Below, in pieces: positions 12,401 through 35,051 of a DNA stretch of 64,000 bases. A program made the position numbers and the translations under genes. Each line of letters starts with the position of its first letter. Position 1 is the stretch's first letter. The stretch comes from Nitrosopumilaceae archaeon (GTDB taxonomy: Archaea > Thermoproteota > Nitrososphaeria > Nitrososphaerales > Nitrosopumilaceae). Below the pieces are notes generated by a model that made no database searches, was not told the DNA's origin, and saw only the letters and a list, made by a program, of their open reading frames with translations. Location of the stretch: the NCBI GenBank assembly GCA_965214835.1, contig CBDCCK010000002.1:2432001-2496000 (forward strand). The letters are read 5' to 3'.

Positions 12401-13317
12401 TGGCCGCAACCGAGCTGAAGAGCAAGGGATGGAGCACACGCACATCACTGCAGTACAGCGGGGCAACCAGGACTGCACTGTACTACGAGAAGACGCCCAG
12501 AAAGGTGTTGCCTGACAGGCAGACTGTCATGCATGTGGAACGGATTGGTAAGCAGAGGCCTACATACGGCACGCGCCGCATGGTAGCCCAGATAAGACGC
12601 CAGACCGGCGTGCCGACAAACCGCAAAAGGATACAGCAGATATACCGCAAAATAGGCTGGATCACGCCTAAAAAGACCAAAAACGACATAATCCGGGCCG
12701 GTAAAAGGGGCAGGTTCAAGCCCACAGGACCAAACCAACTGTGGGAGACTGACATCACGTACGTCTGGTGTGGCGTTGACGGGTGGTGCTACTGCTTTAA
12801 CGTAATCGATACGTTCACCCGGAAGTGGATAACATACGTATTTGACACGCAGGCCACCGCACAGGTAGCAGTCGAATCGCTGACAAAGGCAGTCTCCACG
12901 ATTTCGGCAGACGAGGCGCGCGGCCTGCTGGTCAGAAGTGACAACGGCGTCCAGTATACGAGCCGCGAATTCAAGGAAAGCATGAAGGCGCTTGGGGTAA
13001 GGTGTGAGTACATCTGGCACAACACGCCCGAGCAGAACGGACATGTCGAGTCATTTCACAAGACTTGTGGTCAGGGCAGCCCCCGGCAAGAGTGGTGGAT
13101 CGAGCAGAACGGACATGTCGAGTCATTTCACAAGACCCTCAAAAAGGAGTACGTCTGGCCGCACGACTTTGCCAGGTTCCAGGATGCAGAAGCCGTCCTG
13201 GCAGAGGCGTTTGCGGACTACAACCAGGACAGGATCCACTCGGCGCTGGGATACCTGACACCAGACGAGTTTGTCCGAAAAACCCAGAAAAGACAGGAGG
13301 AGGTGCCTCAAAAATGA
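12400..13317 (+). CDS. IS3 OrfB integrase-core transposase with a 24-aa in-frame insertion
   Basis: PNQLWETDITY, SDNGVQY, EQNGHVESFHKT present twice, YNQDRIHSALGYLTP. Confidence 0.88.
   Translation: MAATELKSKGWSTRTSLQYSGATRTALYYEKTPRKVLPDRQTVMHVERIGKQRPTYGTRRMVAQIRRQTGVPTNRKRIQQIYRKIGWITPKKTKNDIIRAGKRGRFKPTGPNQLWETDITYVWCGVDGWCYCFNVIDTFTRKWITYVFDTQATAQVAVESLTKAVSTISADEARGLLVRSDNGVQYTSREFKESMKALGVRCEYIWHNTPEQNGHVESFHKTCGQGSPRQEWWIEQNGHVESFHKTLKKEYVWPHDFARFQDAEAVLAEAFADYNQDRIHSALGYLTPDEFVRKTQKRQEEVPQK
13029..13136. repeat. 36-bp exact direct repeat flanking a 36-bp unrelated insert
   Basis: cgagcagaacggacatgtcgagtcatttcacaagac at 13029-13064 and 13101-13136. Confidence 0.95.
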
Positions 13318-13377
13318 GCGATCAATGTGTGCATAAAATGTTGCCAAAATCGTTCCTACTCATAGGGGTCCACTCCA

Positions 13378-13872
13378 CGGATACGGCATATTTGACAACG
13401 CGACTACAGAAAACGCCCTCAAGGTGCTTGACGGGGCCATGCAGAAGCACGGCAGGCCCGCCTCCATAATGACGGACCACGGAAGCCAGTTTTACGCAAA
13501 CGAAAAACAGGGTGCAAAGAGGGGGCACAGCGAGTTCGAGGAGAGCCTAGAGGCCCTAGGCATACGGCAGGTCCTTGCCGGGGTGCGCCACCCGCAGACA
13601 AACGGCAAGGTCGAGAGGCTGCACGGCGAGATACAGCGCAAGCTGCACGAGTTTGAGGATATCATGATGAGAACAAGCGATCCCATGGATCTGTTCATGA
13701 AATGGTACAACTACGACAGGCCCCACATGTCCCTTGACTGGGATAACCAGGAGACGCCGGCGCAGGCATATGAGCGCAAGATGCCCCCTGCGGGCGAAAC
13801 GGTCATAGATGGGCAGACCGGGGAGGAATATCATGTCAGATAGGGGGGTGAACTACTTTTCGGATCCCACAC
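13378..13872 (+). pseudogene. IS481-family transposase 3' remnant with right end
   Basis: MTDHGSQF, HPQTNGKVERLH, WYNYDRPHMSL; end motif ggggtgaactacttttcggatcccaca. Confidence 0.82.
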
Positions 13873-13922
13873 ACAGAACCACTACGCACAATCTTTTTTT
13901 ATAGGCCAGTGGAACAACAAGC

Positions 13923-14060
13923 ATGTCTGGAACAAAGCAACTAGAATCCCCGCCATTGTCTGACGAGGAGATACGGGACATCAAAGAGTTTTACGCCCAT
14001 CCCGAAGGACACAAAAAAGGAACCCTTCAAGATCTGCTTGATGAACTGCACAGAGTATAG
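13923..14060 (+). CDS. Putative antitoxin (45 aa, acidic)
   Basis: MSGTKQLESPPLSDEEIRDIKEF...LQDLLDELHRV ends 2 nt before the RelE-like toxin. Confidence 0.65.
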   Translation: MSGTKQLESPPLSDEEIRDIKEFYAHPEGHKKGTLQDLLDELHRV

Positions 14061-14062
14061 GA

Positions 14063-14326
14063 ATGTGGGAGTTAATCTGGTCTGAAAGATTCATCAAGCA
14101 GTACAAAAAACTGGACAGTAAAATAAGACAGAGTGTAGATGATGCAATTATCGTCCTTGCAACATCTGATAGTCCGTCTGCCCTTGGCACATACAAATCC
14201 GGAATGAGAACGTTTTCCTATGAGTTGGGCCGCAAACATAGAATCATATACTTTATCCAATATCAAGCTGGAGCAATAGAACTGCTACGAGTGTGTGACC
14301 ACAAGTCAGCATACGGTAAGGACTGA
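14063..14326 (+). CDS. RelE/ParE-family toxin
   Basis: MWELIWSERFIKQYKKLD start, HRIIY, LLRVCDHKSAY end; 87 aa. Confidence 0.82.
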   Translation: MWELIWSERFIKQYKKLDSKIRQSVDDAIIVLATSDSPSALGTYKSGMRTFSYELGRKHRIIYFIQYQAGAIELLRVCDHKSAYGKD

Positions 14327-14545
14327 CTCCATCTCACACCGGAGACGATCCCATCCGGACTCGCATCATACCGTGACCTGCCCCGTATGGCAACTGGACC
14401 TTATGCGCAATCGACCGCGATTAAAAATTCCGCATGGTTTTCCAAACACAGGTGCGTTGATCAGATCAAACCACTGCATGCTAATGTGGATCCATGACTG
14501 CGCGATCCGCGACCCCTGCCTCCATACACGCTATCCAATACCCTA

Positions 14546-16172
14546 GACCTTATGCGTAATCGACCGGATCGAAATATTCCGACGGTGGCCGGCCACACAT
14601 GCAAGGCTGACGGCATCACATGACGTGTATGAGGACGGCACAGTCCGTATATAGTGCAGCTACGAACCGTTCCAGCTGGTAAAAACTACAATGTCGTGCG
14701 GCATCGTGTGGCGCCGCAATGCGCTCCGTATCGTGATATCAGAACCCACGCATGAGCTTCTTGTTCCGCTTGTCCCACAGCAGCCTAAAGTTGGCAAGCC
14801 CGGCCGTCACCTGGAACTCCCTGTCGAACTCCTCGGCGGTCCCGTCGTACGGATCACGCATCCGCTTGTACTGCTTTATCCGTCCTATGGCGTGCTCTAT
14901 CGTCACCCTCTTGCTGCTTATCCTCCTGTTCTGCGCTTTCTGTTTCTTTGTAAGCTTGCCCACTTGGCTTCTTGTCGGGCTGCACGGATCTGGCCCCTGG
15001 ATACACCTCCTCGATTCCCATGTATGCCAGGTCAGAGAACATCTTTACCTTCTCGTCCTCGGGGTGCTTTCTGTTGCTGCGCATCCTGGCAGTCAGGATT
15101 CCCAGATCCGGTGGGTTGTTCTTTATCATGGTGAGGTCGTGCACGCTTCCGGGCGCCGACTTGCATATATCGACAGTCCCTTCTTGCTGGCAATCACCTG
15201 GGTGTTGCGCGTAAAGCTCTTCTTCTTGCCCGAGTATGCCCCCCTTTCTTGGCTCCTTGTTTGTGGGGCGCTGTATGTCGATGTGCGTGCCGTCTACAAT
15301 CACGGTCAGATCCGGGACGATCTCCCTGAGCCCCTCGATCGTGCGGGCGTTTCGTATCTTTCGTGATACGGCGTCCGGCGTGGGCAGTATCTTGAGAAAT
15401 ATCATGTCGCAATACCTGAGGTACCTGCATACCGTGCTCTGGTCTATGCCAAAGAACGCCGCAAGCTGCTCCTGTGTCGGGTTTCCGTACTTGCGCATCA
15501 GCGACATCAGCAGGGCGTGGCGGTAGGACAGCTTGCACCGGTTTCCAGGCAAGTTGTCCTCGTCTTCTGAGAACAGGGGGCCTTCTGTGTGCTTTTTGGC
15601 AAGCTTCGTAAACCGGTCGGATGTATGGTCAAGCTGGCGGCGGTCCATCGACGTGGTGGGCTGCAGGAACCCGCCGCCGATTATGTCCTCGAGCACCTCG
15701 AGCCTGTGCATGAACGCGGCGTTGTTTACGGTACGCCTGTCGTCATCTCAGGTTGCGGGCCACATCTGGCGCTCAGCGTCCAGCCGCCGCTCCAGCTGCC
15801 CTATCCTCCCCTGATCCCGCTCGTGCCTCCTGCCGTCCTGCCTGCTCTTCTTCTCGTACTCTCTGATCTTCTTCCTGTACTGCATCCTCTCCTTCCTGCC
15901 CCGCGCCTTCTCCCTCCTGTACTGCACATTCTCTTTCTCGTACTGCTCGATTCTCTTCCTCAGCAGTCGTATCAACTCGGTCTCGGACTTTGCCATTACT
16001 CTTGTGCGGGAATGGATCCCGGATCTAAATCAACCGGATGAAAATACCTGCAGGTTTGATCAAATATTTTCCACATAATGAGGCGCCGTCGCGCGTGCGC
16101 CGGCCCTGACTCGCCCCATTTGTAGCCCGTGCGCCGGGGGCATCGCCGCTAATTTCGTTTACGCATAAGGTC
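14546..16172 (-). mobile_element. IS5-family (ISL2-like) element with disrupted transposase
   Basis: TIR GACCTTATGCGTAA at both ends flanked by TA; HTH QEQLAAFFGIDQSTVCR, IVDGTH, SAPGSVHD, RVTIEHAIGRIK; in-frame TGA at 15748-15750 and a frameshift near 14960. Confidence 0.85.
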
Positions 16173-16263
16173 TATAGATGGTTACAGTGCGCAGCTGTCC
16201 AAAAAGATACTTTGAAGCAAACCTACAGCTTGTATCGTACCTGCTAAGAAACGAGGATTTTTG

Positions 16264-16372
16264 GTAGCAGCTCGGGCTCGAAGCTCAGGCGTGAGTTCTG
16301 CAACCTCGGAGGGCACTCCCGGGCATATTCGTGCCTGAAATTAGGAATGGCTTCTAGGGCCCGAGCTGTCAC
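16264..16372. mobile_element. MITE family A copy 2
   Basis: Aligns by eye to 6718-6828 (gctcaggcgtgagtt...ttcgtgcctga); imperfect TIRs. Confidence 0.8.
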
Positions 16373-16762
16373 CGTTAGTGTTTTAGATTTGTTTTTACTT
16401 TGTCAAGAATTCTTTCTGCCCACTTTATGGTATTTTCTGCCTGGCTGTCACTCATCAAATCCGGTTGATACTCATGCATTTTTCAGACCAAGCAGTGAGC
16501 CAAACTGTCTTTCCATCTCTTTGAATTCCGGGCCAGAAAGGATGCCTTTTACCAGCAACAATACATCGGCATGTGATCCTGAGGCACGTTTGCTTAGATG
16601 AAAGATTGTAAGTGCATCCAATGCGTTAATTGCACTGTGTATACAATTCATCACAGTGCTGTCATATGCATGTCGTTCTAGTGCAATTTTTGCTAGTTGC
16701 ATCGAGTTTTCTGCTTTTGTGGTGTGATTTGCATATTTTTGAGAATCTACGTCTCTAGTCAC
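16373..16762 (-). pseudogene. HEPN-domain toxin, frameshifted
   Basis: GTGA overlap with the MNT stop; IHSAINALDAL, SGSHAD, LKNA then shifted EYQPDLMS..WAERIL. Confidence 0.75.
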
Positions 16763-17376
16763 CGCATCATACTCTCCAAGCCCTTGCCACAAATCATGAC
16801 ATGGTCTGCAACGATTGAACGGATCAAGTCGCTTTCCTTTTTGGATTGGAGTTCTTTTTGCGAGAGCGTCATTGGTGCAAGCTGGGCATGAAACACTTCT
16901 GCCACTTCTACCAGTGCGTTTGAAATTATTTGGCTTGCGGCGTCAAAATCGTTTGATATGACAAGTATGTCGACGTCGCTATCTGGCTTCTCCTTACCCT
17001 TTGCGACACTTCCAAACAGCGCAGCAGAGACGATGACTTTCTTTCTGTCAAGATTTTTTTTCAGAACTTTGAGCAGCTCCTCCAAAGCATCTTCTTCGGT
17101 TTTGAAGACAGGTTCGATTACCTTGTTGAGGATGTAGTTTTTCCTGTTCAGGGATAGCTGGTGCGACCTGCCAACGGGCTGAACCGTGACGATGCCAAGA
17201 TCCTCAAGATCACGAATCGTGAGGGCCGCCTCGTTGACAGAGACATTTGCCGTTCTGGCAAGGCCTCTTTTGGTAAAGATCTTGGCCGGATACCGGACCA
17301 TTGTTCTAAGTACGCGTATGGCTGCCTTGCTGCCCAAGACTTGCTCAAGACAGTCGTGGAATTGCATCACCATCAT
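16759..17376 (-). CDS. wHTH plus minimal nucleotidyltransferase (MNT) antitoxin
   Basis: N-terminal HTH-like segment; LFGSVAKG..PDSDVDILV. Confidence 0.88.
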   Translation of the reverse strand: MMVMQFHDCLEQVLGSKAAIRVLRTMVRYPAKIFTKRGLARTANVSVNEAALTIRDLEDLGIVTVQPVGRSHQLSLNRKNYILNKVIEPVFKTEEDALEELLKVLKKNLDRKKVIVSAALFGSVAKGKEKPDSDVDILVISNDFDAASQIISNALVEVAEVFHAQLAPMTLSQKELQSKKESDLIRSIVADHVMICGKGLESMMR

Positions 17377-17414
17377 GTCCCATATTTAAGACATATGTCC
17401 CATATTTAAGACAT
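17375..17414. repeat. 20-bp tandem duplication over the MNT promoter/start
   Basis: atgtcccatatttaagacat twice; contains TTAAATA on the minus strand. Confidence 0.85.
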
Positions 17415-17600
17415 AATCTGTGATAAAATGATTGCCGCACGGCAAGGTTTTCTTCCATGGTGCTTTGTGTCTGAGAGATTTCGCATAGACGCGATACGGA
17501 CAATAAATCACTCTGCTTTCTTTTTGACGGATTTTGTTTTTTATTTTATTACCTCGTGTGTTTCAGAGCAAGAAAAGGCAGTCTGGTTTAGAGTCATGGG

Positions 17601-18150
17601 TCTACAATCCAAAAAGTAGTTCACCCCTTCTCCGAGGGTCAAGTCGGTAAGGATCAGATGCACGGGCCTCATGCATGCCACTGGAAACAGGGGTGTGTGG
17701 GTCTGGCGCAAAAGGGCCTAGTAAATACGTCAGTCTTGCACGCCCCAACAACATGAATCTAAACAAGTCCGGCGTACGGTGGATAGTACGCCAAAAGCAA
17801 AAGGGGGACATGACAAACGCCCCAGATAGCCCAGTCCATGAACGTCTCGGTCCGCCGGGTACAGAAACCGTGGGCCCGGCACAGGTCAGGCACCGTACAG
17901 GACATATCTCACCCCGCACGGATGGGAAGGCCCCAGAACGGCATGCCCGGGCGCAGGGAGCACTCGGCAGTCCTCTCGGTGCGGCCCTCCGAGCGCCTGG
18001 GTGCGGCACCACTGCAGGATCTCACAAGGGAGAATACCGGGATTAATATCCTGCGACATACACTGCACGGCGTGCTAAAGGACGAGGAGGTGGCCAGAGA
18101 CGAGCCCAACGGGCGCAGAAAACGCAGGTGGCTGCCCCCGGAGGCCGGAG
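17601..18150 (+). pseudogene. IS481-family left end and 5' transposase remnant
   Basis: aaaagtagttcacccc is the inverse of the end at 13845-13860; frames read VRWIVRQKQKG and MNVSVRRVQK. Confidence 0.75.
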
Positions 18151-18203
18151 TTCTGGGTGAGATCTGGAAGAACGCTTTAAAAGAGAAACTGCAGCAGTGA
18201 GCC

Positions 18204-18935
18204 ATGGCAGAGGTCGGAATCGCAGTGGCGGTTTTGGCAGGGATCGGCTCCTTTGTTGCGCCGTGCATCCTGCCGATGATTCCGGCATTTCTTGCGTATA
18301 TCTCGGGAACGACGGTCTCGGAGATGAGCCAGAACAGGTCAAGCACGCTGGTCGTAAACAGGGCAAACATCGTCCTCAACGCCGTATTTTTCGTACTGGG
18401 GTTTTCGGTGGTGTTCTCAATACTGGGGGCAGTCATCAACGGGGTTCTTGCAAGCTCTGCAGGCGAGCTTGTGACTGGATTCAACCAGGCAGGCGGAATC
18501 ATAATTGTCGGCTTTGGGGCGTTTTTGCTGCTATCGACCAGGATTGCAAGGTTAAACGTCGAGAAAAAGTTCTTTCCAAAGCGTGACCGGGCAAGCTATC
18601 CGATGTCCTTTGTCTTTGGCCTGGCCTTTGCGGCGGGGTGGACCCCGTGTGTCGGGCCGGTTCTGGGTACCATACTCACGCTGGCAGCCACCACGCCGGC
18701 AATTGCGTTTAACCTGCTTTTGGCATATTCGCTGGGGCTTGGAATCCCGTTTGTGCTGATGGCGGTGTTTTTCTCAAGGGCAAACAGGCTAATCCGCGCA
18801 ATGAGCAGGCATCTGAAGTACTATTCTGCAGTGCTTGGCGCCTTTATCATGGTGCTGGGAGTGCTGGTGTTTTTCAACCAGCTGGCATACATTGCAAACT
18901 TTCCCCTGCTAAACGAGCTGCTCCTACTTGGGTGA
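18204..18935 (+). CDS. ccdA: Cytochrome c biogenesis/DsbD-type membrane protein
   Basis: SFVAPCILPMIP and WTPCVGPVLG motifs; multiple TM helices. Confidence 0.92.
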   Translation: MAEVGIAVAVLAGIGSFVAPCILPMIPAFLAYISGTTVSEMSQNRSSTLVVNRANIVLNAVFFVLGFSVVFSILGAVINGVLASSAGELVTGFNQAGGIIIVGFGAFLLLSTRIARLNVEKKFFPKRDRASYPMSFVFGLAFAAGWTPCVGPVLGTILTLAATTPAIAFNLLLAYSLGLGIPFVLMAVFFSRANRLIRAMSRHLKYYSAVLGAFIMVLGVLVFFNQLAYIANFPLLNELLLLG

Positions 18936-18936
18936 T

Positions 18937-20052
18937 ATGATGAGATCCGAGTACAAGACAGCAGTTGTGATGGTGGCCATAGTCGGGGGAATTGTGGGGA
19001 TAGCAAGCCTGGTCCTAGGGCAGTATGAGACCGACTCGTTCCAATCAGGCACGATACAGACAGATGACGGGATGAGGCTGGCAGACATTGACAAGTCCGG
19101 CCTGAAGAGATCACCGGGAATCGTAGGCATTGAGCAGTACGTCAACACCACCCCAGAGGAGCTGGAGGAGCTGACAAGGGACAGGGTGGTCCTTTATGAC
19201 ATATGGACGTACAGCTGCATCAACTGCGTCCGGACCCTGCCGTATATCACGGCCTGGGATGAAAAGTACTCAGATGAGGGCCTGGTAATAATCGGTGTCC
19301 ACACGCCGGAGTTTGAATTCGAAAAGGAGCTACACAACGTAGAGCTTGCAGTATCAAAGCACGGAATCAAGTATCCCGTCGTGCTGGACAACGACTGGGA
19401 GACGTGGAAGGCCTTTGAGAACAGGTACTGGCCTAGAAAGTACATTGCAGACCACGAGGGGTACATCAGGTACGATCATATCGGCGAGGGCGGATACGCA
19501 GAGACTGAAAGGGTGATCCAGCAGCTGCTCGAGGAGAGGGCAGTCTCGCTGGGGCTCAATGTGGCCTCCGCATCATCCCTGGTGGATCTGCAGGAGTTTG
19601 AGCACACAAGGTACAGGACCCCGGAGCTATACTTTGGATACGAGCTGGCGTTTGGCAGAAGCCAGCTGGGAAATCCCGAGGGGTTCAGGCCCCACGAGCA
19701 GGTGGCGTACACCGTCGCCGGGCCGATGGAGCAGCACAGGTTCTACATGGAGGGAACATGGGAGAACAATCCCGATCACATGAGGCTGGTCTCAGGCGAG
19801 GGTGCAGTCCACCTGCCATATGTTGCAAAGCAGGTAAACATAGTGGCCGCAGGACAGGGCAAGCTGCAGGTGCTGCTAGACGGGGAGCCCGTCCCAGAAG
19901 AGATCGCAGGCAGCGACATCAGGGATGGAATGCTGGTGCTAGACGGCCCTGCCCTGTACAACCTGGTTGAGGGGGAGGCCTCCGAGGAGCACGTCATCCA
20001 GATCGTGGTGGGGGAGGCGGGCTTTGAGATGTACACGTTTACCTTCGGATAG
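18937..20052 (+). CDS. Membrane-anchored redoxin (DipZ C-terminal-like)
   Basis: WTYSCINC, GVHTPEFEFEK, NRYWP, TPELYFG, terminal YTFTFG. Confidence 0.9.
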   Translation: MMRSEYKTAVVMVAIVGGIVGIASLVLGQYETDSFQSGTIQTDDGMRLADIDKSGLKRSPGIVGIEQYVNTTPEELEELTRDRVVLYDIWTYSCINCVRTLPYITAWDEKYSDEGLVIIGVHTPEFEFEKELHNVELAVSKHGIKYPVVLDNDWETWKAFENRYWPRKYIADHEGYIRYDHIGEGGYAETERVIQQLLEERAVSLGLNVASASSLVDLQEFEHTRYRTPELYFGYELAFGRSQLGNPEGFRPHEQVAYTVAGPMEQHRFYMEGTWENNPDHMRLVSGEGAVHLPYVAKQVNIVAAGQGKLQVLLDGEPVPEEIAGSDIRDGMLVLDGPALYNLVEGEASEEHVIQIVVGEAGFEMYTFTFG

Positions 20053-20142
20053 TGTAACCGGACACCCCTGTAACCGCAGTGACAAAAAACGCAGTTACAA
20101 ATCGGTTTAAAGACCGGATTTTCACCAAGTGTGGGGAAAGGC

Positions 20143-20787
20143 GTGATATCTGACGGATGGAGCAAGCGTGGGGGGGCAAGCATCTCAAGCAGGGTCCTAG
20201 GCGCAGTAAAGCAGGAGGTTCCGTTAAAGAACAAGATCGAGCTTGCACAGAGAAAGCTGTCGGTCCAGATCACAAAGCTGGACTCTATCCAGTCAAAGCT
20301 GCAGAAAAAGCACGACATGATATTTGAGCGGATCGTGACTGCCCAGAGGAGCCACAGCAGCTCCTATGCCAAGGCATACGCCGCAGAACTCTCCCAAGTC
20401 AGGAAGATGAAGACCATGGTGGATGGTGCAAAGCTGTCCATGGAGCAGATACAGCTCAGGCTCAACACGGTATCGGAGCTAGGAGACGTAGTCGTGACGC
20501 TTAGCCCGTGCATGTCCATCATCAGGGGGCTGAGCTCGTCAATCGGCGGAATCATGCCGGAGGCCAACGCATCAATGCAGGATCTCTCATCTGTACTCGG
20601 GGACGTGATGAACAACTCCTCTGTGGGCAGCGTGGAGGTGGGAATCAGCGAGCAGTCCAGTAGCGAGGCAAACTCGATACTTGCAGAGGCGCAGTCAATA
20701 CTGGAAAGCCAGACAAAGTCAAGCATTCCGGACGTCCCATCCGAGCTGCGGGCCGGTGCCAGGCAAAGATCCCAGACCCTGATTTAG
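20143..20787 (+). CDS. cdvB: ESCRT-III/Snf7-family cell division protein (CdvB paralog)
   Basis: Helical basic N-terminus, AYAAELSQVRKM, LRLNTVSELGDVVVTLSP, acidic tail. Start codon uncertain. Confidence 0.85.
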   Translation: MISDGWSKRGGASISSRVLGAVKQEVPLKNKIELAQRKLSVQITKLDSIQSKLQKKHDMIFERIVTAQRSHSSSYAKAYAAELSQVRKMKTMVDGAKLSMEQIQLRLNTVSELGDVVVTLSPCMSIIRGLSSSIGGIMPEANASMQDLSSVLGDVMNNSSVGSVEVGISEQSSSEANSILAEAQSILESQTKSSIPDVPSELRAGARQRSQTLI

Positions 20788-21602: not shown

Positions 21603-21981
21603 GCTAGACTAGGCCTGCTAGCACCGGCTCAAATATTTAGGTATACACGGCAGGGCAGAAGCCGTCCGTCAGGCCAAGCACGCCGCCTGAAAGGCCGCAA
21701 AAACGGCAAAACCATACTTTTTTTTAGGCCCTAATTTACAGGATAATCCTGGCTCCCGTCCCCGTCCACCGTCGGGGGCTGGACGGGTCGCAGTCATTGT
21801 GGCGGGGGCCGTTTTTATCTAAACTAGCAAGCAGCTGTCCCCGGATATGGGGCCGCCTCCCCTTGCCGGCCAGGCATGAAAATCACAGATGCATGCGCAC
21901 TCATGCTTGGCTGCCAGGATGAGGTGGCCTCGTACGTCCCCGGCTCTGCAAAGGCCGGGATCGTCAAGATATGCTACTCCC

Positions 21982-22088
21982 GTGGCAGGGGCGGGGATTC
22001 CGGATGTTTTTGGAAGTCTTTCTTGCATCTCGGGCCTTGGGCGCCTGCGTCATGTGGCAGGGGCGGGGATTCCGGATGTTTTTGGAAG
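21982..22088. repeat. 35-bp exact direct repeat flanking a 37-bp unrelated insert
   Basis: gtggcaggggcggggattccggatgtttttggaag at 21982-22016 and 22054-22088. Confidence 0.95.
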
Positions 22089-22132
22089 GGCGGCAGCGGG
22101 GCACGGGATGTATCACCGGAGAGCAGAGCAGG

Positions 22133-22845: not shown

Positions 22846-22908
22846 ATCCAGATACGCCGCCCGTTGCAATTTAACTGATACTCGACAAGATGATCCGGTG
22901 GGAGGGGT

Positions 22909-24897: not shown

Positions 24898-24910
24898 GCG
24901 GCAGGCCGGA

Positions 24911-25639
24911 TCATTGCGGTATGCAGACTGGTGACGCAGGGCTTGCAAAGCCATGATGTACATGCAAACCACTGATCGCGGCCGCCTGTGGCACTCCTAC
25001 TGAGGCATCAAGCAGTCTCAGTACTGCCCTGTCGTATATGGGAACAGTGTTGCATGTTCCGTATAAGGCAGTCTTGAGAATCAGGTGGTTTCCTACCTTT
25101 CTTTCGGTTGTCTTGTCGTATATTCGAAACAGGGCAAATGCGTACGGCTCCTGATCCCACCTGACCATGCTGTATGGACCGCCTCCCACAACGGGGTTCC
25201 TGCTCCGTCCACAGCATGTGAGATTTGCCTCCTCCATCAGGCGCCTCATTGCAAGCAGTTTTTGTTCGTGTGATTCGTCCGTATTGAGGACGACTCTGCC
25301 CAGTGCGCGCGACTCGTATTCGTTATAATCCATGCTCATGCGCGCTTCCCTGAGACTTCTTCCAATGTCCTTAGAATCAATCTCCTCGTCCTCTGACAGG
25401 GTGTAGCTTTCCTTCCCCACCATCCTGGTTATGTCACTGATCTTGGTTTCCAGCTTTCCAAGGAGGCTCAGGAACGCCTCCAGATCGATGTCCGGTGCAA
25501 TGTTGAAGACAGACGTGCGGTCTGTGCTGCCTATCCTGTCCACCCTACCTACCCTTTGAACCAGCCGCATCGGGTTCCATGGAAGGTCGTAGTTGACTAT
25601 GACTGAGCAGTCCTGCAGGTTGACGCCTTCCGCAGTCAA
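24911..25639 (-). pseudogene. SNF2-type helicase C-terminal fragment
   Basis: AEGVNLQ..VNYDLPWNPMRLVQRVGRVDRIG; N-terminal ATPase part missing. Confidence 0.85.
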
Positions 25640-25909
25640 CTCATAAAAAAAACGGATTGTTTTGACGGTTGTTTTTGGCCCAAAGATCTAAGATCAGGCA
25701 GACCATACGCACATGCACTGGAAAACAGACAGAATTCGTAGCATCAAAGGGTAAATTCCTGTCATGCAAAGCATCCACACCTCCGCAAGGCGTACAGGGA
25801 GAACCCACAAGGGAGAACGCGACAGGCTGCTGCGGTCAATTCGGGCATGTGGAGTTTGATATACTGCCGCGCAAGACCCGACAGTGCAGGACACGACAGG
25901 CTGCTGCGG

Positions 25910-26147
25910 TCAGCCCGTCAGGTATTGGAACAGCTTTATCGGAAGGAGCTCGCGCCTGGCAAGCAGCTTCCGCACTGACCGCTCCATGTCATCAAGCGTC
26001 TTGAACATCCTGGCAGACAGCCTCCGCTTTATCTCCCTGTACCGTATCTCGACGGGGTTGAGCTCCGGCGTGTACGGAAGCAGATATTCCAGCATTATCT
26101 GGCCGTCGTACTTTTCCAGCGTCTCCTTTACGCCACCGGACTTGTGG
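25910..26147 (-). pseudogene. IS630-family transposase C-terminal fragment
   Basis: HKS..LLPYTPELNPVE motif, cut at the TA where the next IS630 starts. Confidence 0.82.
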
Positions 26148-26149
26148 TA

Positions 26150-27254: not shown

Positions 27255-27256
27255 TA

Positions 27257-27409
27257 CAAGAGTTTCTGCTTGGCCAAAACGTCCCTGGGTTTTTTGTCAG
27301 TTTGTCAATCAAACACATGACTCGTACTGGGTCTTGCCCAGTATTTTGATCCGTCAGGTACGGATTTGCGCGCAAACGGGTCAAAACCTGCCGATTAAGA
27401 ATCGCTTCT
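27257..27409 (-). mobile_element. Truncated end of an IS5 element like 28652-29742
   Basis: Similar to about 29600-29742, including the transposase start and attaagaatcgcttct TIR. Confidence 0.75.
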
Positions 27410-27539
27410 CTGCATGGTGGCGGCTAGGCTCGTGAACACACGTGGGCATGGATTATGCAGCAAGGCGCCTTTTGGAGATCAAAGACCATCAGTCGTCACC
27501 ATACCGCCCCCGCTTGAGCGAGCCACAGGCGCCGCCGCA

Positions 27540-28426
27540 CTACCGAAAGTTCTTCCAGGGAAGCCTGCAGTCCAGGATCCTCTCCGTCTCAGACACGTCG
27601 TCCCGGAGAAAGTCCTGCAGTCGGCACCTGTCTGACGGGCTCATCTGCGGTTTTGGCCTTCTTTGTCCTAGGATTCTTTCGGCAGCAAACGTCCTGATGG
27701 GGGACGGGATGCGCGTCCGGGCTGATGGCGGTATGAGATCTATGGCTTTGACCAGTGCATGAAAGCGGTGGACATGAAAGCTGTTGTGGGCCCTGAGAAC
27801 GAACGAGTCAGTGTCGGCAGTACACCCCCCCCCACAAAGTCCAGCAGGCCGGCCACCGTGTCCCTCGGGTTTTCGACCAGATCCTCGAGGAGCATCACCT
27901 TGACGTTCTGTCTCCCAAATACCGAAATCCACATGGACAGGGGTTCAGAGTAATAATACTTGTTTGACTTTCTGAGATCCAGCAGATCGCGGTCGTTGTC
28001 GATGTCGTTGCGGCATATGTCGCCATAGTCGTCGTCAATGAAACGGTCAACCGTTTGGGTAAAAGTGATGGCAGTCCTTTTCCATGTCAGGGCCTCAAAC
28101 AGGAACCGTGAAAACAGCCGCTCGACGGGATCTCGCAGGGTGATCAGGATTTTTGCGTCAGGCCTGACTTCGCGGATCCGCCGGCACGCGGTACTGTTAA
28201 AGTAATATTGCGAGGGGTCAACAACCACCCTCTCGTCTCTGACGCCCCTGTAATACGAAAGGTACTGCCTCTTGGTGATGTGGCGCGTAAAGTAGCTCGT
28301 AACCTTCACGGAAGGAACGTACATTCCACGGATCCCCCTCAGAATGTGGTACATCGTAGTTGTCCCTGTTTTTTCTGGGCCGACATAGAAGAGATTGGGC
28401 CACCTCACGGCGTCAGTCTTGTGCAT
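27540..28426 (-). pseudogene. Sulfotransferase, frameshifted at a G9 tract
   Basis: PNLFYVGPEKTGTT and LRDPVERLFS PAPS-binding motifs; C-terminus continues in another frame after 27825-27833. Confidence 0.8.
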
Positions 28427-28651
28427 CAGATAGCCTCTTGATCAGTCAAGTAAAATATGTGTTGGTTGGGACAAAATCCCGGATCTATTGTACAGAAATT
28501 AGGTCGCACTGATTTGAGGAGGATTGCAAGGGATGCTTTGGGCTTTACCGATCAAGACCGATGGTTGCAAGGCTCAATGCACGACAGATCAGATACGCAG
28601 CAACGCAGTGTGCCGGGAGACGAAGGCCCTTTGAGGTGGTCCCGAAGACAG

Positions 28652-29742
28652 AGAAGCAATCCGTAATTAAATTACGAGTGGCAGGTTGCAGTTGTTTTCT
28701 GCCGTGTTTTTCAGGCCACAGCGGCTATCCGTTCCAGTATCCTCAGGTTGACCAGCCCGCACACGATACTGTTGGCCAGATCGTACTTTCTGAGCCTGTT
28801 TCTGTACTTGTAGCTCATTATCTTGAATGTCTTGACCCTGCGTATGCCATTCTCCACGTACACCCGTATCTTTGAGTGTGTTCTGTTGTACTCTTTTTCA
28901 TCGTCGGTCAGCTTGCCGCCAGGACTCTTCTTGATTGGAAGTATAACCTTCGTCCCTGCATCGATGTGCTGCGCACCCTGGTATCCGCGATCCATATAGT
29001 GCCGCAGCTCCTCGCCGTCCTCCTCACCGCTCCAGAACGTGGGATGCTTCATCTGGTATATCTTGACGTCGTTTACGCGCCCCGGCGAGTGCGGGGTCTT
29101 GTGCACTATGGCACCGTGTATGTTGACCGTATACTGGACCTTGGCCGTGTGCGTGCCTGCCTTGCCCGAATAGTGCGACTTTTCCATGTCCTTTCTCTTG
29201 GGCCTGTTTGTGGGCTGCTCGGAGGCGTCAGTCAGGCACACCATCCCCGGGAAGATCTCGGCCAGCTCCTCGACTGAGGAGATCCTCTTGGAGTCCTTGT
29301 AAATCTTCTCGGGGATCGGCAGGCATTGTTTTAGCAGGGGCTCAGTCAGGCTTATGGAGCGCGAGACCGACGCCTGTCCTATACCGAACATGGCGCCAGC
29401 CACCTGGGAGACGTACGTCCTGTAGTAGAACAAGACCAGCAGTACGCGGTTCCTCAGATCCAGGTAGCAAGACCAAAGGGCTCTGCCTGCGCCTATATCC
29501 CGCACACGGTCGGGCCTTGAGAGCCTCTTCTTCTCGGTATCTGGAAATTTCTTTTGCACCTCGGTACACAGCTGGTCAAACTCTGCCTCGGTCATCCCTG
29601 CAAACATCCGGAACGTCCGTGGGTTTTTTGTCAGTCTATCGATCAAACACATGATTTGTACATGGTTTTACAGGTATTTTGATCCGTCAGGCATAGATTA
29701 GTGCCCAAGTGGGTCAAAATCTGCTAATTAAGAATCGCTTCT
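28652..29742 (-). mobile_element. IS5-family (ISL2-like) insertion sequence
   Basis: TIRs AGAAGCAATCCGTAATTA / AGAAGCGATTCTTAATTA; 3-bp TSD CAG. Confidence 0.88.
28711..29652 (-). CDS. IS5-family transposase
   Basis: LTDASEQ, YSGKAGTH, PGRVND, MDRGYQG, RVYVENGIRRVK. Confidence 0.88.
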   Translation of the reverse strand: MCLIDRLTKNPRTFRMFAGMTEAEFDQLCTEVQKKFPDTEKKRLSRPDRVRDIGAGRALWSCYLDLRNRVLLVLFYYRTYVSQVAGAMFGIGQASVSRSISLTEPLLKQCLPIPEKIYKDSKRISSVEELAEIFPGMVCLTDASEQPTNRPKRKDMEKSHYSGKAGTHTAKVQYTVNIHGAIVHKTPHSPGRVNDVKIYQMKHPTFWSGEEDGEELRHYMDRGYQGAQHIDAGTKVILPIKKSPGGKLTDDEKEYNRTHSKIRVYVENGIRRVKTFKIMSYKYRNRLRKYDLANSIVCGLVNLRILERIAAVA

Positions 29743-29745
29743 CAG

Positions 29746-29950
29746 GAATCCTGTCCTGCGTGTGCTTTTGTTTTACATGTCGCTTGCAGTATGCAACATA
29801 TGGCTGACAATGAGGGACTCGGGAGACCCAAAGACCCGCGTCATGGCGCTGCTGACTCTGATGTATGCCGTGGTCCTGTATTCGTGCTGCCTCCGTGCGC
29901 CGGATGCCGACAGGATCGGGGTGGGGCGACGGCGGCATGATCCCGGCTAG
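29746..29950 (+). pseudogene. ISH3-like transposase C-terminal remnant (rest at about 28560-28648)
   Basis: NPVLRVLLFYMSLAVCNIW resembles SPVVRLLLFYMSVILYNLW of the 10027 transposase. Confidence 0.6.
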
Positions 29951-29971
29951 ACGGATTTATGGGGTACATTT

Positions 29972-30373
29972 TCAACTACTGGATACGTTCTCCCCGGATG
30001 TCAGCAGCGCCGATGCGGCGTTCCTGTACTGCCCAAACATGCCTGCCACGTCCGCCCAGCTGTCATCGAACATGGGCGACAGCGGCGGTATCTCGATGTC
30101 TGACATGCTTCCCCCACGCTTTAGGAAGTGGATGTTTTCCTCAAGGCGGTCGAGGGCCTCGAAGACTGCCGCATCCTCTGCCGTGCAGTGAAACAGCACG
30201 CGGTTCAGCTCGTTTTGCACCTCGCTTGTAAGAAGCCTGTTTTTTCCCGCAACGTTTACGGTGTTTCCGGTCAGAACCGTCTGTGACTCAAAGTACATTA
30301 TTACCAGGAAGCTCGCTATGATCAGGATGACCTAGAGAAAAACCACGACTGCAATCTTGTGTACCAGCTCCAT
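29972..30373 (-). pseudogene. Truncated sensor protein with NarX/PilJ-like extracellular domain
   Basis: TM helix broken by TAG at 30332-30334, then VNVAGKNRLLT P-box-like motif; no signalling domain. Confidence 0.6.
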
Positions 30374-30518
30374 CCCGTTTCGTAACACGTTCTGGGAAAT
30401 AAGGCTTCTTTGCTTTATCCTGCGTGGGCAGATCCCGGATCCTTGCTCGTTTCGTGCGCAAAAGGCATACCGCAAGCCGATATCAATTGCTATATAACAA
30501 AGGCGCGTAGGGCATACA

Positions 30519-31286
30519 ATGACTGCAAAAAATACAAAGGCATTTTTGTTTTCCTCATTTGTTGCCGCGCTTATGATCAAATCGCTAAACGATGTTGGAT
30601 TTGCATATGTAGGTGAGGAAGCTGAAAAATACGAGCCTGTGGAGGTATCCGAGGCAATACAGCGCATAACACCATATGTAATACTAGATGAGACCGGGTT
30701 GGTGAAATTCACTGTGGAAAAGAAGGACATCCCACTACATCCGCATGCAATACTTGTTGCGTCTGACTATATCGACATGCAGAACTCCTACCGTAGCCAA
30801 ACCCAAGAAAATCCGAATGAAAAACCAGAGATAGATGATGAACTCAAAGAAAAGTTCTCGAAATTCATAGGAGACATACAAGAAAAAAAATCAAGATCCA
30901 GTGATCCTGGCAATAATGCGCGATCACTAGATCTCATTTTGCCGCAAGCCTTTGCTGTGGGCGAAGTGTGTGGCGGCGCCCCTTGGAATCCCCAGCCAGA
31001 ACCTCCGGTCACTTCCAAATATGCAAGTTCGGGGGCCGTGAATCATCTCCTGAACAACGGATACCACCAGGTTCCGTTTTATGCATCGGGAAACTATGGT
31101 GACGATTATGCAAAAAACACGTCGGCATTTGGATGTAATAACGGTGAGCTCCGCACGCAGGGGCTAGTCACATCTGCTAACTACTATAACCACCAAAGCC
31201 CGGAACCAAACCCCGAGATCCTGTCTTATACTGCGCCGGTTTGGTGGTGGGATGGTTACGTACTTGTGTGGCACGTTGACAACTAA
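30519..31286 (+). CDS. Putative secreted protein
   Basis: Signal-like N-terminus; C-terminal domain with two Cys, PEPNPE and a Trp-rich end. Confidence 0.75.
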   Translation: MTAKNTKAFLFSSFVAALMIKSLNDVGFAYVGEEAEKYEPVEVSEAIQRITPYVILDETGLVKFTVEKKDIPLHPHAILVASDYIDMQNSYRSQTQENPNEKPEIDDELKEKFSKFIGDIQEKKSRSSDPGNNARSLDLILPQAFAVGEVCGGAPWNPQPEPPVTSKYASSGAVNHLLNNGYHQVPFYASGNYGDDYAKNTSAFGCNNGELRTQGLVTSANYYNHQSPEPNPEILSYTAPVWWWDGYVLVWHVDN

Positions 31287-31578
31287 CCCCTCTTTTTTAT
31301 CCAAATTTATAACAGTCATAAACGGGCTGGCTGTAGGAGCTTTTCTATATGTTGTCATCATTGGCAGCATTATGGGATTTGTTTTAGATCCTGTGGATCC
31401 TGCGGATCTGCTGCAAAACTTTTACAACCCCGTTATCTTGGTCTCAAGTGCGTTCTTGCTACTTAGCGTTGTTATTTTTCCATTTGTCATCCCGCTATGG
31501 AAGAGCAAGATCAACAGGATATTGTCCTGGTGTACGACAGGCGGCTTTTTGATATGGATGTCTCTTTTTTTGTTTTAG
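31276..31578 (+). CDS. Small multi-pass membrane protein
   Basis: Three hydrophobic segments; overlaps the upstream stop. Confidence 0.65.
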   Translation: MTTNPSFLSKFITVINGLAVGAFLYVVIIGSIMGFVLDPVDPADLLQNFYNPVILVSSAFLLLSVVIFPFVIPLWKSKINRILSWCTTGGFLIWMSLFLF

Positions 31579-32301
31579 ACGCCCAGTCTTCCTCCTTGTC
31601 CGTCCGCTTGAAATCCATGACGCCGGTCACCACGAACCTGGACGGCCTCGTGCTGCACTGCGGCAAGACTGCCGACGGAAACGTCAACGACAAGGGCATG
31701 ATGAACGCGGGAGGCGGCCCTGACTTTGGAAGGCACACCAGGGCAATGAAGAACGCAGCAAACGCAGCCGACCCGCAAAAGGCGTTTGTGATTTACAGCG
31801 ACCTGGGCTTTGAGGGCATCCAGAAGACGCTCCCGGACGCCATACACAGGCAGCCTCCCAAGAAGCCCAGAGACGGGGAGCTGACCGCGATGCAGGAGAG
31901 GCGCCGCAAGCAGATCAGCAGGGTCCGCGTCAAGGTGGAGCACCACATAGGGAAGCTCAAGAAATATGCCATCCTGACCACGCCGTTTGGCGGAACCGCC
32001 GGGGATCTAAACTATTTCATGCAGATAATTACGGGTCTTGAGAACCTCAAGACTATACTGAAAAAGAAAAAGCGCTACGGCCACCTGCTTGAAATATAAC
32101 GTACGGCGGCACGAGCCGCCTTTCTTATGACTTGACAACAGGACACATCACCGTGCTATATGGTTGCGCACGTCTTTTTGACACGGGCCGATTCTTGCGC
32201 ACGTCATGGCATGTCCGCATGCGGTAGCTTGATCTGATCGATACATCCACGCCCGGAAAACCCCGCGGAGTTTTTAATCCCGGTCGATTACGCATAAAGT
32301 C
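31577..32301 (+). mobile_element. IS5-family (ISL2-like) 3' remnant
   Basis: GNVND, SDLGFEG, RVRVKVEHHIGKLK; end gattacgcataaagtc like the 14546 TIR. Confidence 0.78.
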
Positions 32302-32770
32302 TACTGTACGATAGGAAGATCAAGAGGGTGACAGAACTGGTGGGAACGGCATAGGATTGCCACCTTCCATCCCCCACCCACCCAATGATCGGCCGCACCC
32401 TGGTAGGTGCGACAGGACTGGCTCGTGCGTATTGCTAGCATTAGCTATAAAGCACGGCCCGGCCGACTAGGCACGGATCAGAAGACGAAAGGAATGTTGC
32501 CATGTTACTGGCGGGCGTTTTTACCATGGATGCATAACCATGCCTGAGATTTGGAGCTTGGCCAAAAATCACCAAGATGATCAACGGATCATCCGGGTGG
32601 CAAAAATCGGACAAACCCCCAGTTTGATCGCTGTTTTTTTATTTATCTGCAAACGTACAAAAAGTATTGATGCTTGATAAATGTTCTACACTCATCGTTC
32701 TTGCAATGATGCTTGAAGTATTCAAAATATTCAGTACTTGGGAAAACATTGCCGAGGGGTTAAACATACA

Positions 32771-33028
32771 TTGAAACTTTCTTCCACATTTTTTGTAATC
32801 ACAAGCTTGGCGCTGTCGCTTGTTTTTTTTATCACATTCATAATAAATGTACAGCACACGCCAGAAGTTTGCTTCCATTCAGCATGGTACCCGGAGATCG
32901 ATCGCAGCAACTGCTGGAAACACGTCCCGCTTAACGTTATGCTGTTTTTAGTTCTGCCAGGATATGGTATTTTTGCCCTAGTCGTCTGGATCAGGCATAG
33001 GATTAAAAAACCCAGAGAAATCATTTGA
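32771..33028 (+). CDS. Small two-TM hypothetical protein
   Basis: Two hydrophobic helices around a loop with two Cys; AT-rich. Confidence 0.5.
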   Translation: MKLSSTFFVITSLALSLVFFITFIINVQHTPEVCFHSAWYPEIDRSNCWKHVPLNVMLFLVLPGYGIFALVVWIRHRIKKPREII

Positions 33029-33155
33029 TGTGAGTTGTCCACTGCCAAGCTCGGTGGTGTCTAGCCCACCCTGTCTGATGTTATACTGCATACAAGACGG
33101 CGGCCATGTGCCACTTGATGTATTTCCTCTGAGGCCTGCCTTTCTGATCCTATTG

Positions 33156-33266
33156 GTAGCAGCTCGTGCTCTGGAAGTTCAGGCATGAATTTTGCCACCA
33201 AAAAGGGCTGTTCAAACAGAATTTGTGCCTAAAATCAGAAACAGATTCCAGAGTCCGATCAGCTAC
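33156..33266. mobile_element. 111-bp MITE, family A copy 3
   Basis: gtagc...gctac ends; 8-bp TSD tcctattg at 33148-33155 and 33267-33274. Confidence 0.83.
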
Positions 33267-33425
33267 TCCTATTGGTCTTTTTTGCGCCAGATTTGTGCGG
33301 TATCCACCAGCTCCATAAGTTAACGCCAGAAACCCCTAGATTAACACCCTGCCGAAAAACCCCGGAGATTTACCAGAGTAGCCGTACGGAATGGTTTTTA
33401 ATTAAATCAGATCTGGGAATAGCTG

Positions 33426-33827
33426 ATGTCAGACGCGCCTCCTGAGGACACATTTGAGATAACGCACGAGGCAAGGCTGCTTGACTTTCAGGGGGAAAAG
33501 CTGTGCTGCATAATAGACAGCAGGGCAGAGACAAGGCAGGCGTGCGAGAGCTTTGTAAGCGACGGGTTTGACTACAACCTAAAGGGAGTCATACTGAGAA
33601 GGCCGGACGGCCACCAGATGGGGTGCAGGTTCGTCATAAAAAACGACGTGCATGCGCTAGACTGCAGGTGTGCGCCCCCAAACGAATGGATATCCGAGCT
33701 AAGAAAGGCAAGGCGGCTGGGAATAGCAGACTCTGCCGGCACCGCGATGGTGGTCTGCGACGACCTGTGGACCGGCGATATCGAGGGGGTCCTGAGGGTG
33801 TTTTACTCTGCAGGCCGGGGCAGGTAG
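33426..33827 (+). CDS. Hypothetical protein
   Basis: 133-aa ORF with an AT-rich TATA-like box upstream. Confidence 0.65.
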   Translation: MSDAPPEDTFEITHEARLLDFQGEKLCCIIDSRAETRQACESFVSDGFDYNLKGVILRRPDGHQMGCRFVIKNDVHALDCRCAPPNEWISELRKARRLGIADSAGTAMVVCDDLWTGDIEGVLRVFYSAGRGR

Positions 33828-34157
33828 TCACTTGCTCTTTTGGACAAGTATTTTTTTTATCCGAGATATCGTAGGGTAGCTATAGCCCCGCCGGCGGTAG
33901 TTTGCAATCATCATCTTCCAGTTTTTCAGCCTCCACCGGGCCTGCTCGGCGGTAACGGAGTGAACCTCCCTTTGGATTATGCTTTTTCTGCCCACCCTCA
34001 GGGTTCCGGCATCCTTTGCAGACCAGCGGTTCCTGGCAAACTTGAGCCCTACGAGGATCTCAGAGACGGGCATCTCGCGGAAGTACTCGCGCATCTTGCG
34101 CATCTGGGCATCCGTTGGCTTTTCTGAGACGTTCAGCTCGATGGATGTTTTTTCCAT
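33828..34157 (-). CDS. Basic hypothetical protein
   Basis: 109-aa ORF with host-like composition, convergent with the previous gene. Confidence 0.7.
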   Translation of the reverse strand: MEKTSIELNVSEKPTDAQMRKMREYFREMPVSEILVGLKFARNRWSAKDAGTLRVGRKSIIQREVHSVTAEQARWRLKNWKMMIANYRRRGYSYPTISRIKKILVQKSK

Positions 34158-34224
34158 GACATGTATCCGCGCGCATTGCTTATCAAAATCATGCTAAGCT
34201 TGATTTAACAATATGTGAAATATT

Positions 34225-34347
34225 TTAGCAGTCAAAAAAGGGCACGCTGGAGTTCTTGCACAGCGTGTTGTAGATGCCGAATCCGAAGATGATGGCTCCA
34301 AAGACTGCCATGGGCACGATGATCAGGAGGTTGGACTTTAGCCCCAT
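34225..34347 (-). CDS. Small membrane protein (40 aa)
   Basis: MGLKSNLLIIVPMAVFGAIIFGFGIYNTLCKNSSVPFFDC; TTTTATA box upstream. Confidence 0.55.
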   Translation of the reverse strand: MGLKSNLLIIVPMAVFGAIIFGFGIYNTLCKNSSVPFFDC

Positions 34348-34385
34348 GCAGAAAACCTGCAGTCAGGGTATAAAATTGCACCCGA

Positions 34386-34805
34386 CTATGCGATCTCAAC
34401 GGTCAGGGTTGCAGTCGTCTTTGGATCCTGGAGCGCCCGTACCATGCTTCTGGGAAGGGAGTCAGATGCCTTGTCGGATTTTATGGCCATGGTTCTAGGG
34501 CACGTAAAGCCGCTTTTTCGAATCACGATGTCCCCGGGATGGCTCAGCTCAAGTCCCGGATGGCCCCTCCCCTCAAAGGAGAACGCCTGTCTGCCTACGA
34601 CAATGCTAAAGCGAACCCTGGTCTGCGGATCCCTCAGCCTTTCTTTGAGATCCTCCGGCAGGCCTCCACATGCGGCTGATGCGTTGACCCCGACGATGCA
34701 GTCGCCGCTGGGGGTAAGATCAGGATCCCGCGTGATCTCGATTGTCTTTTGATGGAGTGATCTTATGTTCTCATGGCCGGTAAATGAGATTTCAAACCGC
34801 ACCAC
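34386..34805 (-). CDS. DUF371 family protein
   Basis: GHENIRSLHQKTIEITRD..LTPSGDCIVGV, IVIRKS.F.CPRT, DKASDSLPR. Confidence 0.88.
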   Translation of the reverse strand: MVRFEISFTGHENIRSLHQKTIEITRDPDLTPSGDCIVGVNASAACGGLPEDLKERLRDPQTRVRFSIVVGRQAFSFEGRGHPGLELSHPGDIVIRKSGFTCPRTMAIKSDKASDSLPRSMVRALQDPKTTATLTVEIA

Positions 34806-34941
34806 TCAACGGCTTTGTGCGCATATTTTAAAATAGTTCTCACGTCAGGCATGATTTCAAACCGTACCCGTCATGTAGCCAAATGAGGCGTGCATTGAGC
34901 CAAAACCAGGCGGGGATGCAAGCGGACCGGCGAGCGTCCGG

Positions 34942-35051
34942 ACTTGAGACGTGTCTTGAACGGCCACAGACATGACATGGTTTGCACCGAGTGCCTAAAA
35001 TGCGCAAGATGCAAACTTGAGACGTGTCTTGAACGGCCACAGACATGACAT
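34942..35051. repeat. 37-bp exact direct repeat flanking a 36-bp unrelated insert
   Basis: acttgagacgtgtcttgaacggccacagacatgacat at 34942-34978 and 35015-35051. Confidence 0.95.

Follow-up and report, generated by a model that had tools for sequence, protein, structure and literature searches.

Off-target spacer integration by CRISPR integrases has been described in Escherichia coli type I-E, where over-produced Cas1–Cas2 acted on supplied oligonucleotides (Nivala, Shipman and Church 2018, as recounted in sections of PMC7054753, PMC6698737, PMC9456107, PMC11788318 and bioRxiv 10.1101/148544), and the section of bioRxiv 10.1101/148544 on natural events calls the evidence, from two other species, 'circumstantial'. 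Pyrococcus furiosus Cas1–Cas2 also integrated off target in vitro, at non-CRISPR sites with particular sequence and spacing features, according to the relevant part of PMC6698737. The type I-G (formerly I-U) system of Geobacter sulfurreducens, as presented in the acquisition section of Almendros et al. 2019 (PMC6547450), has a Cas4–Cas1 fusion that uses a TTN protospacer-adjacent motif (PAM) and takes up spacers predominantly of 36 bp, with self spacers enriched at the replication origin. Here we analyse a 64,000-nt stretch of an archaeal genome (the window; C2:2432001-2496000, with coordinates given as window positions unless prefixed by a contig, C1 or C2), which carries a predicted type I-G locus and, away from its CRISPR array, three loci in which a spacer-sized insert lies between two copies of a repeat-sized target. 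These loci, which we call scars, and their counterparts elsewhere in the genome are very probably the products of off-target spacer integration by the resident Cas4g/Cas1g fusion and Cas2.

Like the E. coli type I-E off-target or 'neo-CRISPR' loci described in those sources, the scars hold a spacer outside the array, a target duplication of repeat length and a repeat–spacer–repeat arrangement at a non-CRISPR site. They differ in having arisen naturally, in an archaeal ammonia oxidiser with a type I-G Cas4–Cas1 fusion; in numbering about 36-46 in one genome, with PAM-bearing and origin-proximal donors and population polymorphism; and in that no scar has been extended by a second, different spacer. 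With G. sulfurreducens the present system shares a Cas4–Cas1 fusion with Cas2, the 36-bp spacer, the TTN PAM and origin-linked self DNA, whereas the published work concerned on-target acquisition in heterologous E. coli and its section on acquisition contains no off-target chromosomal scars. The likeness to P. furiosus, as far as the part of that paper on off-target sites goes, is an archaeal integrase inserting at non-CRISPR sites; in contrast, the targets here are no more repeat-like than random 36-mers and have just a short flank preference. Off-target integration is thus a known kind of event, and what is new is its natural occurrence at unusual density. In the literature covered, from which subscription papers were excluded, we came across no natural genome for which dozens of such scars had been described.

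Scar geometry, the resident CRISPR locus and relatives

A search for direct repeats, together with the sequence itself, bore out the three exact loci listed by the initial annotation of this DNA, each with an insert unrelated to its repeats, and the degenerate case:

13029-13136, no strand assigned: scar 1, repeat 13029-13064, insert 13065-13100, repeat 13101-13136; repeat 36 nt, 100% identical, insert 36 nt
21982-22088, no strand assigned: scar 2, repeat 21982-22016, insert 22017-22053, repeat 22054-22088; repeat 35 nt, 100% identical, insert 37 nt; intergenic
25800-25838 and 25874-25912, no strand assigned: old repeat–insert–repeat, repeat 39 nt, 82% identical, insert 35 nt, period 74; in a multi-copy element
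34942-35051, no strand assigned: scar 3, repeat 34942-34978, insert 34979-35014, repeat 35015-35051; repeat 37 nt, 100% identical, insert 36 nt; intergenic

Scar 1 lies within the open reading frame of an IS3-type (rve) insertion sequence (IS) transposase (12232-13317), to which it adds 24 aa in frame. Beside scar 2, a sequence of about 90 bp (21846-21936) recurs many times in this genome and in the relative G002, and resembles a miniature mobile element.

Downstream in the same window lie the adaptation genes, a long array and the start of the interference genes:

48012-49712, plus strand: cas4g/cas1g fusion gene, 566 aa (Pfam Cas_Cas1 3.3e-88 and Cas_Cas4 4.9e-20; NCBIfam NF049935 754.8 bits, cut-off 560)
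49716-50006, plus strand: cas2 (Pfam CRISPR_Cas2 3.1e-16; TIGR01573 32.1 bits, cut-off 24.5)
50007-50177, plus strand: CRISPR leader, ending in TTACGGG and abutting repeat 1
50178-60954, plus strand: CRISPR array with 147 spacers, of modal length 36-37 nt, between 148 repeats of 36 nt
60980-61999, minus strand: IS630-type (DDE_3) transposase, between the array and cas3g
62179-64000, plus strand, running past the window end: cas3g (TIGR02621 630.3 bits, cut-off 400)

The orientation of leader and array was deduced from the 3′ ATTGAAGC end of the repeat and from the upstream position of cas2. Beyond the window, cas3g is followed by cas8g2, cas7g/csb1 and csb2; the models cas7_GSU0053 (140.7 bits, cut-off 38) and cas5_6_GSU0054 (210.7 bits, cut-off 45) were matched above threshold, and cas8c_GSU0052 (Cas8g2; 100.8 bits, cut-off 125) was the only I-G component to score under its NCBIfam cut-off. 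By its gene content the locus is a complete type I-G system, with Cas4g/Cas1g, Cas2, Cas3g, Cas8g, Cas7g (Csb1) and Csb2 (Cas5–Cas6), and is not like type I-E, for which the initial annotation had mentioned off-target integration. The fusion is the sole Cas1 match in the genome, which is near-complete at 3.22 Mb in two contigs (C1 and C2), has 52.6% G+C and encodes archaeal AmoA; the organism is therefore an ammonia-oxidising archaeon.

To place the window loci in the context of the whole genome, we collected every exact direct repeat of 16 nt or longer whose copies lie no more than 300 bp apart. Repeats of at least 25 nt outside the arrays showed period peaks at 72 bp (27 cases), 73 (13), 74 (6) and 75 (11), with 0-5 cases at neighbouring periods; further peaks at 84, 126 and 156 bp were due to tandem repeats of proteins or IS. 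Among non-CRISPR repeats of 33-40 nt, insert lengths concentrated at 36 nt (17 cases), 37 (9), 35 (4) and 38 (5), most other lengths up to 118 nt holding 0-2 cases, and a separate peak at 119 nt (8) and 120 nt (4) came from 156-bp protein repeats. Conversely, for inserts of 30-45 nt the repeat length peaked at 36 (20 cases) and 37 nt (11). So sharp a peak at 36/36 means that the geometry is not due to chance.

We then curated the loci in steps. Repeats of 30-44 nt around inserts of 28-46 nt gave 68 candidates. Of these, 17 were removed because they were tandem-like, belonged to the second array or had at least three copies, leaving 51; seven were removed by name (five from one multi-copy element family, one repeat region and the second copy of a duplicated locus); and eight fell outside a repeat of 33-40 nt or an insert of 33-42 nt, leaving 36 curated loci. 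Several of these last eight are probably scars with a mutated repeat end, and about eight additional loci have decayed, with 1-4 mismatches between their repeats. Curated repeats measured 36 nt at 15 loci, 37 at 11, 38 and 35 at three each, 34 at two, and 33 and 39 at one each. The periods (72 bp at 14 loci, 73 at nine, 74 at three, 75 at five, 76 and 71 at two each, 69 at one) mirror those of the array, where 36 nt plus the spacer gives 72 in 45 cases, 73 in 54, 74 in 18, 75 in 16, 76 in four and 71 in seven (spacer lengths 36, 37, 38, 39, 40 and 35 nt, respectively, with one spacer each of 26, 41 and 51 nt), in agreement with the 36-bp repeat and period near 73 bp first given for the array. 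The scar inserts are all different from one another, and their matches to array spacers do not exceed 9-14 nt.

As controls, we scanned parts of the genomes of relatives, grouped by whether they match the Cas4g/Cas1g model, which in control genomes also picks up other Cas1 types:

G005: no match to the model, 800 kb sampled, 0 scars
G016: no match to the model, 400 kb sampled, 0 scars
G003: match above cut-off, 400 kb sampled, 1 scar (38+34)
G004: match above cut-off, 800 kb sampled, 2 scars (35+34 and 37+35)
This genome: match above cut-off, 3.2 Mb, 36 scars (about 4.5 per 400 kb)

The Cas1-free relatives thus gave no scar in 1.2 Mb and the relatives with an I-G system three in 1.2 Mb. These same-genus or same-family genomes range from 1.3 to 4.3 Mb and are diverse in the G+C content of the sampled DNA (G004 38%, G003 65%, G005 51% and G016 60%, with 53% here).

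Insert donors and their flanking motif

Chromosomal donors, with at most four mismatches, were found for ten of the 36 curated inserts; an eleventh match is a duplicate copy of the same locus. The insert of scar 1 matches C2:902180-902215 on the minus strand at 35 of 36 positions, with TTG directly 5′, and that of scar 2 matches C2:257418-257454, also on the minus strand, at 36 of 37, with TTC directly 5′. No donor for the scar 3 insert was found in the genome, nor, with a 28-nt core, in viral_contigs (0 matches). In one orientation, TTN lies directly 5′ of six of the ten donors (five TTC and one TTG); counting the self-duplicate, six of 11 against a null of 0.1175 gives P = 7e-4. This is the PAM reported for the G. 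sulfurreducens fusion.

Two of the donors, at 902180 (for scar 1) and 906373 (for the scar at 1033730), are no further than 6 kb from orc1/cdc6 (C2 900127-901338) and the gene for the PolD small subunit, and a third, weak donor is nearby (C2 904372, 33/38). The maximum of the cumulative GC skew falls at about 890 kb and the minimum at 2.35 Mb, and this donor-rich region is a probable replication origin. Of the 147 main-array spacers, by contrast, not one matches the chromosome, and relaxed matching of array spacers to the genome added nothing significant. The simplest reading is that the integrase often samples self DNA, with self-targeting spacers being removed from the functional array and persisting in scars.

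Templated-insertion repair, by polymerase template switching or microhomology-mediated break repair, could also copy distant DNA and duplicate the flanks with no role for CRISPR, and would account both for the ten inserts copied from other chromosomal sites and for the several scars that lie in repeat-rich DNA. Such repair, however, gives variable lengths, whereas here both are constant and correspond to the repeat and spacer lengths of the array, with a mode of 36 for the duplication and of 36-37 for the insert; nor would it predict an I-G PAM at six of ten donors or an absence of scars from the sampled Cas1-free relatives. We consider it very unlikely.

Empty alleles and multi-copy hosts

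If the scars are insertions, alleles should exist in which the repeat occurs once and the insert is missing. Of the 36 curated loci, 18 have such empty paralogues (19 if all 51 examined loci are counted), at 1-25 per locus, with the two flank matches overlapping by the length of the repeat. At scar 1, nine IS paralogues are empty, with a single 36-mer, and one copy is filled; in one example, the flanks match C2:1191636-1191800 and 1191765-1191964, overlapping by 36 nt. Scar 2 proved polymorphic in assembled contigs from independent sequencing runs, a comparison in which minor alleles are invisible: contigs of runs X5 and X6, from one study, join 21981 to 22054, so that 72 bp are missing; the shorter side spans 233 nt, and there are no more than three other differences. 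Contigs of run X1, from another study, end inside the two repeats, the site being filled or broken there. At scar 3, contigs of X1, X5 and X6 all end at 34971, inside the first repeat, which is what one would expect were the repeat present in all three runs. A search for orthologous empty sites in the nearest relative, G002, found no alignable DNA at scars 2 and 3. The scars are insertions with a target duplication of about 36 bp.

A second alternative is that the arrangement is built into mobile elements, for instance as subterminal transposase-binding repeats, or that it began as ordinary tandem duplications whose middle part diverged afterwards. Multi-copy DNA hosts half of the scars, and the degenerate window case also speaks for this alternative. 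The initial annotation had listed that case, at 25803, next to the three exact loci; it is present, with the identity and period given above, but it is carried by a multi-copy element and is not an independent local event. Homologous filled copies occur at C2 607910, 1995421, 1308091, 1623861, 2343251 and 2691845 (at least seven filled, including the window copy), with a homologous insert, some copies being only about 80% identical. Solo copies, with a single repeat and both flanks collinear, lie at C2 1653696 and 1216053; another subfamily (C2 1736693 and 2257292) carries a different 36-nt insert at roughly the same position; and one subfamily has specific changes common to both repeats. From these alignments the case is plausibly an old scar that spread along with its element, the same target having been hit twice, although it may instead be an intrinsic feature of the element with deletion derivatives. 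For the scars as a whole, a built-in or tandem origin is highly improbable: at the 18 loci with empty paralogues most copies are empty and a single one is filled, the scars sit in unrelated hosts (IS of different families, intergenic DNA and unique open reading frames), and the inserts are unrelated to their flanks and derive from elsewhere.

An assembly or sequencing artefact is scarcely credible: short exact repeats can mislead short-read assemblers, but the genome is near-complete in two contigs, contigs from the runs of two studies break exactly within the repeats of scars 2 and 3 or bridge the empty form of scar 2, and about 36 loci, some with decayed copies, have the same precise geometry.

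Target choice, consequences and proposed mechanism

The duplicated targets of the 36 curated loci are not similar to the CRISPR repeat beyond the level of random 36-mers (mean identities of 11.2/36 and 10.4/36, respectively), and it therefore appears that the protein complex itself dictates the 36-bp spacing. Half-site preferences are weak but significant: among the 72 half-sites obtained by pooling both ends of each locus, 35 have C at −4, 61 have G or C at −2 and 36 have G at +1, the first duplicated base; the GGG of the leader before repeat 1 bears merely a loose likeness to this motif. Ten of the 36 scars fall in C2 2.33-2.47 Mb, a stretch of 140 kb that takes in window positions 1-35051, lies immediately upstream of the cas locus (2.48 Mb) and is close to the GC-skew minimum. 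We rejected IS density as the cause of this cluster, the multi-copy fraction there being 0.27 and 0.17, which is not exceptional.

In a rough open-frame test, 13 of the 36 sites lay within frames of at least 200 codons, and at about eight of these, scar 1 included, the frame was extended by 23-25 codons; at others it was shortened. The in-frame loop of 24 aa that the initial annotation had expected is thus seen at scar 1 and, on this test, at about eight of the 36 loci. Periods divisible by three were not in significant excess by our own arithmetic (20 of 36 scars, against 41.5% in the array). The further suggestion that scars seed new arrays found no support: none of the loci from the genome-wide scan holds two different spacers, as a growing neo-CRISPR array would, and the two loci with three repeats (C2:2832639-2832822 and C2:2610439-2610618) carry an identical insert twice, the repeat–insert unit having probably been duplicated by recombination between the new repeats.

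In the mechanism that we propose, the complex would capture prespacers of 35-40 bp, its Cas4 domain selecting a 5′-TTN PAM, from foreign DNA and from the cell's own chromosome, notably beside the probable replication origin. Occasionally it would attack non-CRISPR DNA, in two transesterifications about 36 bp apart on opposite strands, and gap repair would leave the 36-bp target duplicated on either side of the inserted spacer. The order of these chemical steps follows established Cas1–Cas2 biochemistry. Scars would presumably yield no CRISPR RNA, so that self-derived inserts would be harmless there but would be purged from the real array.

The attribution to off-target integration draws on the geometry, the insertion with target duplication, the donors, their PAM and, among the genomes sampled, the restriction to those with an I-G module, all of which we observed directly; that Cas4g/Cas1g–Cas2 is the catalyst we infer, because the genome has a single intact cas1 and scars were seen only in relatives carrying the module. 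This agrees with the earlier proposal that a Cas4–Cas1/Cas2 integrase writes spacers across its own chromosome, and extends it to more loci than had been reported; the analyses suggested then, of a genome-wide 36+36 peak, of empty alleles, of insert sources with their PAM and of relatives lacking cas1, each came out in its favour.

Several points weigh against this attribution. The exact TTN is absent at four of the ten donors, two of which have the TT shifted by one base, and 26 of the 36 inserts have no donor in the genome (for scar 3, none in viral_contigs either). The array offers no PAM of its own for comparison, as only one of 154 array spacers matches the genome, on C1, with a 5′ flank of GTT followed by C, and the array has no match in phage and plasmid collections. 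In our reading of the seven PAM-oriented loci, a small sample, the PAM side of the insert bears no consistent relation to the flank motif. Empty paralogues could arise by precise deletion through recombination between the repeats, which matters for the 25803 family. The samples from relatives are small, at 0.4-0.8 Mb per genome, and G004, with a near-identical I-G system, has no scar in the 400 kb that contain its cas locus and array and the DNA upstream of them; something besides the enzyme is therefore needed to account for the density in the present genome. Higher activity may be behind that density, or else purifying selection that is weaker in an IS-rich genome (multi-copy 24-mers make up 18.8% of its 24-mers).

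Taking off-target integration by the I-G complex as the source of the scars, we tentatively put forward a broader reading, with somewhat under an even chance of holding in all its parts: that the scars are an unselected natural log of naive adaptation, that the 36-bp ruler is intrinsic to the complex, that stray integration is concentrated in cis and that the integrase is a real insertional mutagen. If so, about 28% of the captures by this I-G integrase would be chromosomal self DNA (10 of 36, hot beside the origin) as against none of the 147 main-array spacers, the scar log would directly measure the strength of autoimmune purging of the array, and insertional mutagenesis would add in-frame segments of 23-25 aa to proteins of an IS-rich archaeon.

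Some 40 independent natural events with known targets and inserts, and with donors for ten, constitute a rare natural record of the off-target behaviour of an integrase. They make testable how it recognizes DNA without leader or repeat, whether its repeat-length ruler is intrinsic to the protein and how much self DNA is sampled before selection, as well as whether stray integration plays a part in gene disruption, protein insertions or the origin of new arrays. Empty and filled versions of the loci are ready substrates for an in vitro assay.

The surroundings of the CRISPR locus provided further observations. The IS630-type transposase divides the locus, with adaptation genes and array on one side and interference genes on the other. 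The I-G locus begins about 190 bp past a tRNA-Asn(GTT) gene (47746-47822), itself located after a ribosomal-protein cluster (L3...L6), and looks like an island inserted at the tRNA gene; in G004 the gene upstream of cas4/1 differs, encoding a nucleoside 2-deoxyribosyltransferase. High integrase expression by read-through from the ribosomal-protein genes is unsupported, as a small open reading frame, a T-run, the tRNA-Asn gene and an A/T-rich stretch separate L6 from cas4/cas1, and the different upstream gene in G004 also counts against it. The main array itself holds a unit duplication at 57774-57956 (99% identical, 2.5 copies). Its spacer 41 targets C1, a contig of 13,188 bp, at 6365-6401 (36/37 nt), and C1 probably represents plasmid or viral DNA that persists alongside the host in spite of the matching spacer.

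A second, small array of eight repeats in two sequence variants lies at C2:135820-136367, with no cas genes adjacent. Among the products encoded around it are TraG-like ATPases, DNA methylases and a protein that matches the Cas3 HD domain weakly, which suggests an integrated mobile element. The gene for ribosomal protein L24 (43820-45028) encodes 402 aa, of which the first ~113 match Ribosomal_L26/KOW; its long acidic tail contains tandem repeats of 66, 75 and 141 bp (44210-44908) and an exact 72-bp duplication at 44210-44344.

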